A stretch of 10,423 bases of DNA from a virus (taxonomy: Duplodnaviria; Heunggongvirae; Uroviricota; Caudoviricetes), in IMG/VR virus record IMGVR_UViG_2534681835_000018; one strand, given 5' to 3'. Shown here piece after piece: positions 3,001 to 6,000 of the stretch. The position numbers are program-made. The stretch's first letter is position 1. Each line of letters opens with the position of its first letter.

Positions 3001-6000
3001 CACCGTACACCTGATGATTTTCATCGTATACGCGCTGTATCTCTCTCTTCAGCCAGTCATCGCGCTGAGCACGGGCACTGCGTTTATCAGGATGATGTCG
3101 CTGTTGCTGACAGTGGTAATACGTTGACGGGGCAATATGCAGTTCACTGCATACCGGTCCGACCCCGTACTGCTCACGCAGCTTATCCAGCAGCGGCATT
3201 ATTTTTTCCAGAGGCGGTCGAACTCCGCCTTCGCAAAATAAGCGGAAGCCTGGCGAAGGATATCGTTACTGCGGCGCAGTTCACGATTTTCACGTTCCAG
3301 CTCTTTCAGACGCTGACGTTCAGCGCTGGTGAGCCCACCATCACCGCCCCCGGTATCCCGCTCATGCTGGCGAACCCAGACACGCAGAGTCTCCGGCGTA
3401 CAGCCAATCTTTGGGGCAATGGAACAAATTGCCGCCCACTGTGAGTCATATTCATCCTGACTTTCCAGAACCATACGAATCGCCCGCTGACGGACTTCGG
3501 GGGAAAAACGAGTATTTTTAGTCATCCTGTTTACCTCTTTCTCAGGGAGTTTAGTCTCCAGGATTTCCGGGGCGGTTCAAAAAGATGAAAAAGAAAGATC
3601 GCGATGCTGATTTGCGCTGGATTCATGGCGTTATAGTTCAGGCAGCGTGGTTTGTAAAAGCATCACTGGAGCAGAATGCACTATCGGGCAACTATCCGGT
3701 AACTCCGGATAGTTGGATAAGCTGTAGTGAGCGAATGCCGGATACCAAAACAGCCGTTCTTGTTGCCAGGGATTTTGGCAGGAAAGGTGACTGGCGAATG
3801 AAATGGGCGACTTACATCCCGGGGCATCCTGACGCTAATGATGGGTGGATAATACCTGGTGCGTCGTGGATACCATCACACTGGATGCCTCTACCAGAAC
3901 CGCCGCAGGAGGTGCGCCAATGAACTGGCCTGAAGCATTTGCAATTACAGGCGTTGCTATGGCTATCGCTTTTTTAGTATATGTTATTTGTCGGTGAGGG
4001 TAAAAACGTTCGCCGGGATTAACACCAAAGGAGGGAATATGTCGGATGATATATCACTGGCAATGGAAGGTGCGCTGGCTGTTGTTGCTGTTGTGGGCGT
4101 TTACTGCCTGGTTGTGTTTTTGATGGATCGACTAGGGAACTGAATTCATTACGATATGGGAATTCCCATATCGGGTAAAAACGGTTTGCGGTAAAGCGAG
4201 AGTTAAGTAGAATTGCTGCGGGTGCTTGAGGCTGTCTGCCTCGGGCATGCCACCGTAAGGCAGACAGAGAAAAGCCCCAGTTAACATTACGCGTCCTGCA
4301 AGACGCTTAACATTAATCTGAGGCCCAATCTATGCTTCACAAACGTAGGTTAGCCTCTTACGTGCCGAAAGGCAAGGAGAAGCAGGCTATGAAGCAGCAA
4401 AAGGCGATGTTAATCGCCCTGATCGTCATCTGTTTAACCGTCATAGTGACGGCACTGGTAACGAGGAAAGACCTCTGCGAGGTACGAGTCCGAACCGGCC
4501 AGACGGAGGTCGCTGTCTTCACAGCTTACGAACCTGAGGAGTAAGAGACCCGGCGGGGGAGAAATCCCTCGCCACCTCTGATGAATCAGGCATCCTCAAC
4601 GCACCCGCACTTAACCCGCTTCGGCGGGTTTTGTTTTTCCTGGCATTCTGGTTTACAATTCGCACGCCAGCCTGAACAACTGGCACCTGCTGCGCCAGCA
4701 GAGACAACCGATGGCGCACGATACCAAATTATACAATTCTGATGATTCTGCCGTCTTTGCCAGCAGGCGCGGACGGTGTTTTCACGCATTCAAATCTGAC
4801 TGGTACCAGCATCCCCCATGCACTGAAGAACAGGCCGAATGGCTCATTCAGTGTTACCGCAGGCGCGGATGCGAGGTTAAAAAAGCCCTTAGCCTCGACT
4901 ACCGTCACTGGATAATCTCCGTCAGGCTCCCTTACTCCGAACGGCCACCGCGTCCGTCCCGCACATTCTAGCAACGGATCTGGAGGTAATGTGCGGGTAT
5001 TACTTCGACCTGTTCTGGTACCGGAACTCGGTCTGGTTATCGTTAAGCCAGGCCGTGAATCCATGCGGGTATTTCATGGCGGCAGGGTGCTGGTGGAGTC
5101 TGAACCGAAAAGCATGCGTAATCTGCCGTCCGGGGTCGTTCCTGCCGTTCGCCAGCCGCTGGCGGAAGATAAATCATTACTGCCATTTTTCAGCAATGAG
5201 CGTGTGATTCGTGCTGCTGGTGGCGCTGGTGCACTGTCTGACTGGTTATTACGTCACGTTAAATCCTGCCAGTGGCCTCATGGTGATTATCATCACAGCG
5301 AAACTGTCATACATCGTTACGGTACCGGCGCGATGGTGTTGTGCTGGCACTGCGACAACCAGCTGCGCGACCAGACATCCGAATCACTTGAGCAACTTGC
5401 TCAACAAAACCTGTCAGCATGGATGATTGACGTCATCCGCCACGCAATGAATGGCATACAGGAACGGGAATTATCGCTGGCTGAATTATCCTGGTGGGCA
5501 GTCTGCAATCAGGTGGTGGACGCATTACCTGAGGCAGTATCGCGTCGTTCTCTGGGATTACCGGCGGAAAAAATCCGCTCCGTATACCGTGAAAGCGACA
5601 TCATACCGGGAGAACAGACCGCCACCAGCATACTGAAGCAGCGCACAAAAAATATTGCGCCACCGCCTCACACCCACCAGCAACAGAACCCACCACAGGA
5701 AAAGACGGTGGTCAGCATTGCCGTTGATCCGGAGTCTCCGGAATCCTTCATGAAACGACCTAAACGTCGCCGCTGGGTAAATGAGAAATACACACGCTGG
5801 GTAAAGACACAGCCGTGTGCGTGTTGTGGTAAGCCAGCGGACGATCCTCATCATCTGATTGGTCATGGTCAGGGTGGAATGGGAACAAAATCCCACGATA
5901 TTTTCACGCTACCGCTGTGTCGGGAGCATCACAACGAGCTTCATGCGGATCCGCTGGCGTTCGAAGAAAAGCATGGTTCCCAGGTTGATTTAATTTTTCG

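Follow-up and report, generated by a model that had tools for sequence, protein, structure and literature searches.

Fold-back pairing and regulatory elements of a hok/mok/sok-type locus in a probable lambdoid prophage

Does the hok-like gene in this stretch of viral DNA (10,423 nucleotides, hereafter the window) belong to a regulated toxin module, or is it a decayed remnant, and does the complementarity between the two ends of its mRNA serve a structural purpose? The fold-back mechanism of hok/sok has belonged to textbook knowledge since the 1990s. The locus in the window is an ordinary copy of an already known kind, and its fold-back arrangement is the textbook one, not a new one. Its value for discovery is small, as the mechanism is established, the family is catalogued, and a 92%-identical prophage copy has already been characterized by experiment. 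We are highly confident that positions 4186-4640 hold a complete type I toxin-antitoxin module of the canonical hok/mok/sok kind, corresponding to PGAP's hokD gene in its intact form, and just as confident that this module is a close paralogue of hokW-sokW. An earlier note on this DNA had claimed a complete hok/mok-type locus, and every item that it described was found in place. Its reading of the locus as a functional, regulated toxin rather than a decayed relic is supported at the level of sequence by an identifiable Sok gene, a favored long-range fold and an intact Hok reading frame.

Elements of the locus

The toxin reading frame (4389-4544, plus strand, 51 aa) is preceded by a GGAG Shine-Dalgarno sequence (SD; 4376-4379) and bears the RefSeq name hokD. 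The protein matches Pfam PF01848 HOK_GEF (E 5.8e-23, 80.7 bits against a cut-off of 22) and PHROG 251 'MokW-like host killing' (E 1.3e-32). No inactivating substitution is evident, as Hok of the window keeps all 16 invariant columns of a five-member family alignment. It differs from K-12 HokD only by I34V, a conservative change, and is 90% identical to HokW. Both relatives were toxic in published assays, HokW in PMC8621323 and HokD according to bioRxiv 10.1101/2025.08.07.668861. Column entropy across 17 close paralogues shows that 4376-4515, the region of the reading frame, is almost invariant.

The mok reading frame (4332-4544, plus strand, 70 codons, ATG at 4332) runs in frame with hok and has its own Shine-Dalgarno sequence, GAGG (4320-4323), 8 nt before the start codon. 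Across the family the position of the mok start is conserved (-57/-58 relative to hok, -60 in two Sodalis loci), and GAGG precedes it in 51 of the 52 loci in which a mok start of this kind could be located. Some subfamilies have mok in frame 0 relative to hok, others in frame +1. The in-frame mok-like leader frame described earlier is thus present, with the correction that an in-frame mok is a subfamily trait and not a property of the whole family.

Upstream of the leader lies the hok/mok promoter (4186-4213, plus strand), read from the sequence as a -35-like TTGCGG (4186-4191), a 16-nt spacer and a -10 box TAGAAT (4208-4213). It fell below the threshold of a consensus promoter scan, yet 57 of 58 distinct homologous loci have a TAnnnT box at essentially the same distance from the 5′ element (shifted by one base in two loci), which bears out the candidate promoter of the earlier note. 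The sequence further upstream of this box is unrelated among the loci. The consensus promoter and terminator scan missed the hok promoter, the Sok promoter and the Sok terminator. Because it missed both promoters, their assignment rests on conservation within the family and on a published sokW mutant. A promoter-like site that the scan did report inside the leader (4307-4336) we regard as spurious.

Transcription most likely starts at G4220, 7 nt past the -10 box, a base that coincides with position 1 of the Rfam model. RF01794 matches 4220-4394 on the plus strand over its full length (model positions 1-157) with 117.5 bits against a gathering score of 59, and reaches only 18 bits on the minus strand of the locus. 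This Rfam family, although named 'sok', marks the sense-strand leader and not the antisense RNA. The predicted full-length mRNA would run from 4220 to 4637 (about 418 nt), its ends being taken from the Rfam start and the terminator. It folds at -180 kcal/mol, and the version from 4217 to 4637 has a z of -7.7 relative to shuffled sequences.

Within the mRNA, a stable 5′ stem-loop of the leader folds at 4232-4267. Two spots in the locus vary among the 17 paralogues, and one of them is a 10-column block in the loop region of this stem-loop (4248-4256). At the other end, a GC-rich hairpin with a 9-pair stem (4552-4573) appears in full-length and truncated folds alike and is likely the protective 3′ end of the processed mRNA; in plasmid R1 the corresponding last stem-loop shields the truncated mRNA from exonucleases (PMC9841398). 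An intrinsic terminator follows at 4613-4640, with a stem at 4613-4630 (7 pairs, 5 of them G-C, and a loop of 4) and a T run, the tail reading TTGTTTTTCC.

The 3′ region also gave a sub-threshold match to Rfam isrK (4553-4634, 27 bits, gathering score 50). We rejected an evolutionary link between hok 3′ UTRs and this Gifsy-1 sRNA, as the similarity is confined to two generic hairpins; another origin has been proposed for IsrK (PMC8825220).

A search of the minus strand for a Sok-like gene, which the earlier note had proposed, yielded a candidate promoter at 4375-4347 and a predicted RNA of about 75 nt. The promoter consists of a -35 box TTGCCT (4375-4370), a 17-nt spacer and a -10 box TAACCT (4352-4347). 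It is weak by consensus and was not called in the scan. The element is conserved across the family, and over this stretch the window matches the sokW promoter of Sakai prophage 5 (Sp5) base for base. In Sp5, mutation of the same -10 box ('pro-less', primers YO-421/422) abolished antitoxin activity, and sokW RNA was seen on northern blots (PMC8621323). The predicted Sok RNA (4340-4266, minus strand, about 71-75 nt, with inferred ends) would be complementary to the mok SD and start codon; in Sp5, 71 nt of sokW are complementary to the hokW leader (PMC8621323). In its predicted fold, 9 unpaired nucleotides at the 5′ end precede a single long hairpin, and the 3′ end is rich in U (-30.7 kcal/mol, z = -4.7).

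Long-range pairing and refolding of the mRNA

The complementarity that raised the question lies between TGCGGGTGCTTGAGG (4217-4231) and CCTCAACGCACCCGCA (4594-4609). The second is the reverse complement of the first apart from an extra C, C4600, which is bulged. With a start at G4220, the TGC at 4217-4219 is probably outside the RNA, so the helix comes to 12 pairs and one bulge, not 15. The near-perfect match reported earlier is therefore confirmed in a trimmed form. Its 5′ arm is the translational activator element, tac (GGGUGCUUGAGG, 4220-4231, plus strand), and its 3′ arm the fold-back inhibitory element, fbi (CCUCAACGCACCC, 4594-4606, plus strand). RNA folding, suggested in the earlier note as a check, strongly favors this pairing: in the minimum-free-energy fold of 4217/4220-4637 the two arms pair with a base-pair probability of 0.97-1.0.

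A match of this kind might be a by-product of chance or shared ancestry that has no structural role. The helix is short, at 12 pairs, and both of its arms are invariant in the closest paralogues, which makes those sequences uninformative on their own. However, the 10.4-kb window contains the pattern CCTCAA-N(0,1)-GCACCC at just two places, the tac and fbi sites on opposite strands, and the tac/fbi complement pattern was matched in none of 200 dinucleotide-preserving shuffles. The predicted pair probability near 1 argues in the same direction. Across genera the position of the complement is conserved as well: when a 13-nt tac probe was compared with the downstream window of each locus, with shuffled controls, nearly all of the 57 intact loci had the complement 45-71 nt past their stop codon. 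This probe replaced an RNAduplex comparison of 150-nt upstream with 130-nt downstream windows, which zipped up the entire windows and was uninformative.

More distant relatives show that tac and fbi covary across Enterobacterales. When pairs were tallied duplex by duplex for every position of tac, two-sided compensatory changes appeared at positions 4, 8, 9, 10, 11 and 12. The proximal six pairs, counted ungapped in 20 non-R1 haplotypes, are 100% paired, with UA replaced by CG in 7, a level reached by 1 of 500 shuffles; these counts are to be read with the caveat that the 3′ partner was chosen by a duplex search, which favors pairing, and that related sequences inflate them. The R1 class is one column out of register in a common tac/fbi alignment because its tac is one nucleotide shorter, and it lacks one nucleotide in each helix arm. 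There is in addition mutational evidence for the tac stem in R1 (PMC9841398). A chance origin is already refuted by the covariation, and we give it next to no weight.

The helix is one of three alternative pairings in which tac and the mok leader take part. An anti-Shine-Dalgarno box, also called ucb (AAGCCCCAG, 4272-4280, plus strand), can pair either with the mok SD region or with tac. In the full-length fold, the mok SD lies within a segment (4318-4324) that is paired to 4274-4276 and 4278-4280 with a probability of 0.97-0.99. When the 3′ end is removed (fold of 4220-4593), tac 4220-4227 pairs instead with 4272-4278, at about 0.9. In a nascent transcript of 36 nt, tac pairs with 4238-4248 and forms a metastable hairpin. 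The proposal that the fold-back keeps the mRNA inert is thus borne out in silico: in the modeled closed form the mok SD is hidden, and removal of the 3′ end would move tac onto the anti-SD box. The elements, the three pairings and the covariation are observations made in silico, as is the finding that the Sok promoter is identical to that of sokW. For transcription, 3′ processing, RNase III cleavage and toxicity of the window copy we infer from R1 (PMC9841398) and from hokW-sokW of Sp5 (PMC8621323).

By analogy with these systems, a weak constitutive promoter (-10 box at 4208-4213) would produce a stable mRNA of about 418 nt from G4220, the 5′ end of which would be kept in the local metastable hairpin during transcription. 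Once the 3′ end is made, tac (4220-4231) would pair with fbi (4594-4606) and the anti-SD box (4274-4280) would mask the mok ribosome-binding site, leaving a closed form to which neither ribosomes nor Sok have access, an inert reservoir. Slow 3′ exonucleolytic trimming would strip away fbi and halt at the hairpin at 4552-4573; tac would then move to the anti-SD box and free the mok translation-initiation region. As long as short-lived Sok (about 4340-4266, minus strand) is present, it would pair at the mok start region and the duplex would be cut by RNase III. When Sok is gone, mok would be translated and the 51-aa Hok made through translational coupling, and the peptide would insert into the inner membrane and collapse the membrane potential. 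PMC9841398 summarizes this mechanism for R1, including 3′ exonucleolytic activation and RNase III cleavage of the Sok-mRNA duplex. In Sp5, smaller hokW RNAs were seen and left unassigned, and the dependence on RNase III was partial (PMC8621323).

Prophage setting and possible role

Prophages of many non-O157 EHEC genomes, in which RefSeq labels the gene hokD, share a 551-base stretch of the window at 99.8% identity. Relatives of the locus occur in 4754 of 5426 complete E. coli genomes, with up to 11 related places in each EHEC genome. The hok family is found in about 80% of Enterobacteriaceae genomes and is about four-fold enriched in prophages, according to bioRxiv 10.1101/2025.08.07.668861.

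The module very probably belongs to the nin region of a lambdoid prophage of E. coli, where it is flanked by the replication genes on one side and the Q antiterminator on the other and reads in the direction of the early-right operon. A position upstream of Q in the same orientation was found in all six phages and prophages examined (window/E2855, Sp5, HannyBb, PPompW, Evi and an IS-free E2855 copy), and a position between replication genes and Q in the five of these that have replication genes in view. An IS element lies nearby (2270-3579), and the hok locus is untouched. Upstream of the hok promoter there is a perfect 22-bp palindrome (4152-4173). We rejected it as a hok operator or terminator: 21 of its 22 bases match inside a KilA-N-domain ORF that adjoins a Photorhabdus hok locus, making it more likely a short relic at a mosaic junction.

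Most likely, by analogy with Sp5, Sok is lost after prophage induction and Hok is then produced, which would hasten lysis and raise phage release. Work on the Sp5 locus established HokW toxicity, sokW antitoxin activity, membrane localization and RecA-dependent HokW production; deletion of hokW-sokW halved phage release, and growth arrest was faster when the locus was present (PMC8621323). This role rests on a single study of the Sp5 paralogue, whose 3′ end differs from that of the window copy.

An intact sequence is no guarantee of a phenotype, and the copy in the window might be a biologically inert passenger, like the K-12 chromosomal hok loci, with no effect on host or phage. Chromosomal hokA, hokB and hokC reportedly show neither post-segregational killing nor activation by rifampicin, as summarized in bioRxiv 10.1101/2025.08.07.668861, and the K-12 hok loci are regarded as inactivated (PMC12214031). 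Neither promoter in the window reaches the consensus-scan threshold, deletion of hokW-sokW had no effect on normal growth (PMC8621323), and with up to 11 related places per EHEC genome any single copy may be redundant. Decay in this family is visible where it has happened, however. Loci L009, L010, L015, L031 and L038 have lost tac, mok and the Sok promoter, whereas in the window all regulatory elements are intact and in register. The near invariance of 4376-4515 among paralogues and the sparing of the locus by the nearby IS insertion also speak against a passenger, and in Sp5 the paralogue is expressed, with a phenotype that could be measured on induction (PMC8621323). We consider an inert copy very unlikely.

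The module may also work and serve mainly another end, either prophage stabilization, through the killing of prophage-free cells, or abortive-infection defense against phages that shut off host transcription. The earlier note had leaned in this direction, naming prophage maintenance or phage defense. R1 hok/sok confers post-segregational killing on its plasmid and reduces T4 plating (as cited in PMC8621323), the prophage enrichment of hok fits such a use, and a stable toxin mRNA paired with an unstable antitoxin has the logic of a sensor for transcription shut-off. Hok and Mok had no match in PADLOC-DB 2.0.0, which means absence from that catalogue, not from defense function, and bioRxiv 10.1101/2025.08.07.668861 reports no enrichment of hok beside defense systems. 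The sole experiment on a prophage copy found instead that the locus gave two-fold more phage and quicker growth arrest (PMC8621323), that is, help with lysis and phage release. Lysis, stabilization and defense are not mutually exclusive, and the matter is one of emphasis; a main role other than lysis seems to us unlikely, though less so than inertness.

The locus touches the question of how induction removes Sok, and the gene order suggests read-through from pR as a cause. As a tentative possibility, which we hold to be somewhat doubtful, the fixed position and orientation in the delayed-early (pR) unit upstream of Q may link prophage induction to the production of Hok. Once the repressor is cleaved, read-through from pR under N antitermination would meet the convergent Sok promoter (4375-4347) head-on and flood the cell with Sok-complementary sense RNA, so that Sok synthesis would be occluded and leftover Sok titrated. 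Takada et al. (PMC8621323) observed that sokW vanishes rapidly and in a RecA-dependent manner while the level of discrete hokW mRNA is unchanged, and that HokW appears about one hour ahead of the Q-dependent endolysin. Read-through, if it occurs, would explain the disappearance of sokW, the steady hokW mRNA and the timing of HokW, all of which that study left open. Given the hypervariable region of the Sok 5′ tail (4327-4346), each resident prophage copy might answer only to its own prophage.

Comparison with known systems

The name hokD invites comparison with hokD (relF) of the Qin prophage relBEF operon in E. coli K-12. In the K-12-type loci (L010 and L015) the homology takes in the hok SD, the reading frame, the 3′ UTR, fbi and the terminator. 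Nothing of the module is left ahead of that SD: relE sequence stands in place of the hok promoter, tac, the anti-SD box, mok and the Sok promoter, whereas the window copy is complete. This matters for annotation: in these EHEC prophages the label 'hokD' stands for a module that is complete, mok, Sok, tac and fbi included, and not for the truncated relic of K-12, and none of these four elements is annotated in the records that carry prophage hokD.

Chromosomal hokC/mokC/sokC (gef), between nhaA and dnaJ, has the same tac sequence, a mok that is in frame at -57, a matching layout and a Hok that is 80% identical. Its leader is about 20 nt shorter (tac at -150, compared with -169 in the window), its fbi reads CUUCAACGCACCC, which gives a G-U pair, and its Sok -10 box differs. 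It occupies a core-chromosome site and not a prophage.

The founding member, hok/mok/sok (parB) of plasmid R1, shares the architecture and the predicted switching, from tac-fbi fold-back with the anti-SD box over the mok SD to tac/anti-SD pairing after 3′ trimming. Both also have a metastable hairpin at the 5′ end of the mRNA, and in both the antisense RNA consists of an unpaired 5′ tail and a single hairpin. R1-like loci (L003 and L069-L085) were recovered in the same homologue searches. There are differences as well: the R1-type Hok (L003) is only 41% identical to that of the window, R1 tac is shorter by one nucleotide (GGCGCUU...), a change mirrored in fbi, and most R1-type loci have mok in the +1 frame, unlike the in-frame mok of the window. 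The R1 module is plasmid-borne and has a post-segregational-killing role, and the window copy resides in a prophage.

The closest characterized system is hokW-sokW of Sakai prophage 5, an Stx2 phage of E. coli O157:H7 (Takada et al. 2021, PMC8621323), with 92% nucleotide identity over the leader and reading frame. The tac, fbi, mok SD and start, hok SD and Sok promoter are identical, and mok is in frame in both. Both loci lie in lambdoid prophages upstream of Q in the same orientation, although the carrier prophage is different. The toxins diverge at the C-terminus (FTAYEPEE in the window, FVDYESEK in HokW), and there are six substitutions in the Sok-complementary stretch at 4326-4345. Homology stops a few bases past fbi, and the terminator that follows fbi in the window is absent from Sp5.

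Predicted pairing between the ends of the hok transcript

The earlier note described a 5′ element of this hok locus as almost perfectly complementary to a stretch just before the terminator. TGCGGGTGCTTGAGG (4217-4231) and CCTCAACGCACCCGCA (4594-4609) are both found at these places, and one unmatched C, at 4600, is the only break in their complementarity. A search for CCTCAA-N(0,1)-GCACCC gives just two sites in the 10.4-kb window, namely these two elements on opposite strands, and none of 200 dinucleotide-preserving shuffles contained a match. When the RNA was folded as 4217-4637 or 4220-4637, the minimum-free-energy structure paired 4220-4231 (the 5′ element, tac) with 4594-4606 (the 3′ element, fbi), with C4600 bulged. 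Base-pair probabilities for this helix were 0.97-1.0, and the whole fold had a z of -7.7 against shuffles, so that folding does favor the long-range pairing. The helix is slightly shorter than first described. Since the hok promoter has its -10 box TAGAAT at 4208-4213 (+) and position 1 of the Rfam model aligns with G4220, the hok transcript probably starts at 4220. This start would leave TGC 4217-4219 outside the RNA and give a helix of 12 pairs plus the bulge.

Seventy-nine loci with Hok relatives were fetched from species-representative genomes, plus plasmid and phage copies, and the 57 loci with a recognizable 5′ element and an intact 3′ part were scored using the 13-nt 5′ element as probe. 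The best tac complement lay 45-71 nt 3′ of the stop codon in almost all of these loci, and in most of them it beat nearly all shuffled controls. The tac and fbi arms covary across the family. Position 4 of tac forms U-A in Escherichia and Kluyvera copies and C-G in Photorhabdus and Pantoea, position 12 forms G-C or A-U, Mixta and Sodalis copies differ in the distal half of both arms, and the class of plasmid R1, the founding hok/mok/sok system, lacks one nucleotide from each arm. In the ungapped proximal six pairs, 120 of 120 cells were paired over 20 haplotypes and 7 of the 20 showed two-sided change, a level matched by 1 of 500 shuffles, with the caveats that the 3′ partner was chosen via a duplex search and that related sequences inflate the counts. 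Every slid register of these six pairs collapses.

Natural contrasts are provided by loci without the 5′ part: K-12-type hokD copies behind relE (L010, L015, L031, L038) and a damaged copy (L009), in all of which fbi and the terminator are still present. The K-12-type copies keep the hok Shine-Dalgarno (SD) sequence and ORF, and are without the hok promoter, tac, the anti-SD box, mok and the Sok promoter. In L009, tac is damaged and mok is frame-shifted. Judged by sequence, this is the appearance of a decayed locus, in contrast to the window copy.

Overlapping reading frames and the predicted antisense Sok RNA

The mok ORF (4332-4544, +, 70 codons) and the hok ORF (4389-4544, +, 51 codons) share a frame and sit between tac and fbi, with the terminator (stem 4613-4630, then a T run, +) 3′ of both elements. 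The 51-residue Hok product matches Pfam HOK_GEF (E 5.8e-23) and PHROG 251, "MokW-like host killing" (E 1.3e-32). The in-frame mok-like leader noted earlier is thus real in the window, but it is a trait of a subfamily. A mok-type start with a GAGG SD lies 57-58 nt 5′ of hok in most family members (60 nt in two Sodalis loci), and relative to hok it is in frame 0 in the hokD/W, hokC and Photorhabdus groups and in frame +1 in the P1-type group and most R1-type loci. This variability agrees with the published view that mok translation matters, not the Mok product (PMC9841398). Low-level TadA A-to-I editing (6%) of hokD mRNA is reported to change Tyr to Cys at the tyrosine aligned with HokB Cys46 (PMC12214031). 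The Hok Tyr47 codon in the window is UAC, followed by G (4527-4530, +), and A4528 would be the base edited in this copy.

The Rfam model RF01794 has a full-length match on the sense strand at 4220-4394 (+; 117.5 bits, gathering score 59), which begins with the 5′ end of the hok mRNA and reaches the hok start codon. The minus strand, which carries the real antisense RNA, scores only 18 bits. What this "sok antitoxin" model marks is therefore the hok leader, and in annotations based on it "sok" is too long and on the wrong strand. A sub-threshold Rfam match to IsrK, a Salmonella Gifsy-1 sRNA, at 4553-4634 (+; 27 bits, gathering score 50; E 2e-4, computed in a 191-base search) spans the hok 3′-UTR hairpin, fbi and the terminator. 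This likeness is probably not meaningful, as it is confined to two hairpins.

A Sok-like promoter and a predicted Sok RNA were identified on the minus strand. The promoter was missed by a consensus scan and was read from the sequence as -35 TTGCCT (4375-4370), a 17-nt spacer and -10 TAACCT (4352-4347). Over this stretch the sokW promoter of Sakai prophage 5 (Sp5) of E. coli O157:H7 has the identical sequence, and both boxes are conserved across the family. According to the published mutagenic primers, destroying this -10 box abolished sokW antitoxin activity, and sokW RNA was detected by northern blot (PMC8621323). The predicted Sok RNA, starting near 4340, folds into one long hairpin between a free 5′ tail of 9 nt and a U-rich end (-30.7 kcal/mol, z = -4.7); it spans both the SD and the start codon of mok. 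In a comparison of 17 close paralogues, the most variable 10-column blocks of the transcribed locus 5′ of the terminator are 4248-4256, in the 5′-hairpin loop region, and 4327-4346. On the plus strand the latter contains mok codons 1-5, and on the minus strand it takes in the predicted Sok 5′ tail (4332-4340) and reaches the Sok -10 box (4347-4352); its flanks, the mok SD and that -10 box, are both nearly invariant. This pattern suggests selection for copy-specific recognition between Sok and its target in multi-copy genomes.

Prophage setting and biological role

Many complete E. coli genomes match a 551-base stretch of the window at 99.8% identity. Most are non-O157 EHEC strains, O111 and O121 among them, and their annotation names the ORF hokD. 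Of 5426 complete genomes, 4754 have related places (median two per genome, maximum eleven). Near-identical Hok contigs in assemblies labelled Veillonella, Acinetobacter, Xanthomonas, Ferruginibacter, Streptomyces and Oscillibacter (L016, L025, L033, L076-L078) are mostly short, and are most likely enterobacterial or plasmid contamination, not true hosts.

The window and a lambdoid prophage of E. coli E2855 are collinear, with the gene order Ead/Ea22-like protein, DUF551, hok, DUF968, RusA, Q, tRNAs. The sole difference is a 1310-bp IS3-family element (2270-3579, -), absent from E2855; the rest is 99.9% identical and the hok locus is untouched. The element carries orfA (3199-3525, -), orfB (2312-3199, -) and an ALIL frameshift pseudoknot (3128-3244, -), and splits a 254-codon ORF starting at 1741. 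It lies about 600 bp 5′ of the hok promoter, and its flanks overlap by 3 bp, as expected for target duplication. Three tRNA genes and the sRNA STnc100 (138 bits) lie 3′ of the Q antiterminator gene (9119-9365 and 9445-9635, +); the same tRNAs are annotated Ile, Arg and Arg in E2855. Such an arrangement ahead of the late region is usual in Stx-type lambdoid prophages.

Directly 5′ of hok, short ORFs at 3920-3997 and 4040-4143 (+) encode the hydrophobic peptides MNWPEAFAITGVAMAIAFLVYVICR and MSDDISLAMEGALAVVAVVGVYCLVVFLMDRLGN. The ORFs containing them had no PHROGs match, and that at 3988-4143 was negative in Pfam and NCBIfam as well; in E2855, RefSeq annotates the place of the second peptide as a hypothetical protein of 34 residues (105-bp CDS). 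The sequence CGATATGGGAATTCCCATATCG (4152-4173) is a perfect palindrome of 22 bp that stops 12 bp short of the hok -35 box, at the point from which Sp5 is homologous. It also stands 5′ of hok in PPompW prophages, and a 21/22 match lies in a KilA-N-domain ORF about 400 bp 3′ of Photorhabdus cinerea hok (L055 1249-1270). The palindrome is thus probably no more than a short relic, left where mosaic segments join.

Direct evidence on biological role comes only from Sp5. There, mitomycin C treatment leads to the loss of sokW, the appearance of HokW depends on RecA and precedes that of endolysin by about an hour, and in the deletion mutant growth arrest comes later and phage release is halved (PMC8621323). 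The R1 plasmid copy is documented to act in post-segregational killing and phage exclusion (PMC8621323), and either may apply here. Against a defence role, Hok had no match in PADLOC, and a preprint (bioRxiv 10.1101/2025.08.07.668861) reports that hok is not enriched near defence systems. The module lies 5′ of Q, co-oriented with the delayed-early genes, in all six phages and prophages inspected, with replication genes on its other side in all but Sp5, where the fetched region 5′ of hok holds hypothetical ORFs only. From this layout we infer that antiterminated pR read-through, once induced, would collide with the convergent Sok promoter and give excess sense RNA. If true, this would account for both the loss of sokW and the early timing of HokW relative to the Q-dependent lysis genes.

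RNA states and comparison with known hok loci

In the full-length fold, the mok SD (GAGG, 4320-4323) and its flanks are paired with 4274-4280 (probability 0.97-0.99). Truncation 5′ of fbi (4220-4593 or 4220-4585) shifts the 5′ element to 4272-4278 (about 0.9) and leaves the mok initiation region in a weak hairpin (about 0.44). On their own, the first 36 nt fold into a local hairpin that holds the 5′ element (-21 kcal/mol). R1 hok has closed, open and metastable states, involving tac/fbi, ucb (the anti-SD box), dcb and a metastable hairpin (PMC9841398), and the folds predicted here are these three states. A GC-rich hairpin of 9 pairs at 4552-4573 is positioned where it would halt 3′ trimming.

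The observation in the earlier note is confirmed, and its interpretation is supported. The most likely mechanism is that of R1, for which the evidence in this locus is its sequence, folding and covariation. By analogy with R1 and Sp5, the locus would be transcribed, its RNA processed and cleaved by RNase III, and its Hok peptide toxic. Loci of this kind are already known, widely distributed and experimentally characterized, so the interest of another is low.

Between the promoter and a point just beyond fbi, the Sp5 hokW-sokW locus is 92% identical to that of the window, with no difference in any regulatory box. Homology (L002, the Sp5 locus, 1919-2010, against window 4594-4640) stops a few bases 3′ of fbi. 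The terminator hairpin is absent directly downstream of fbi in Sp5, whereas the window keeps a K-12-hokD-type terminator, so the hokW mRNA that has been studied must end differently from that of the window copy. K-12 hokD differs in protein by I34V and is missing everything 5′ of the hok SD. The window therefore holds the complete form of the "hokD" of the databases.
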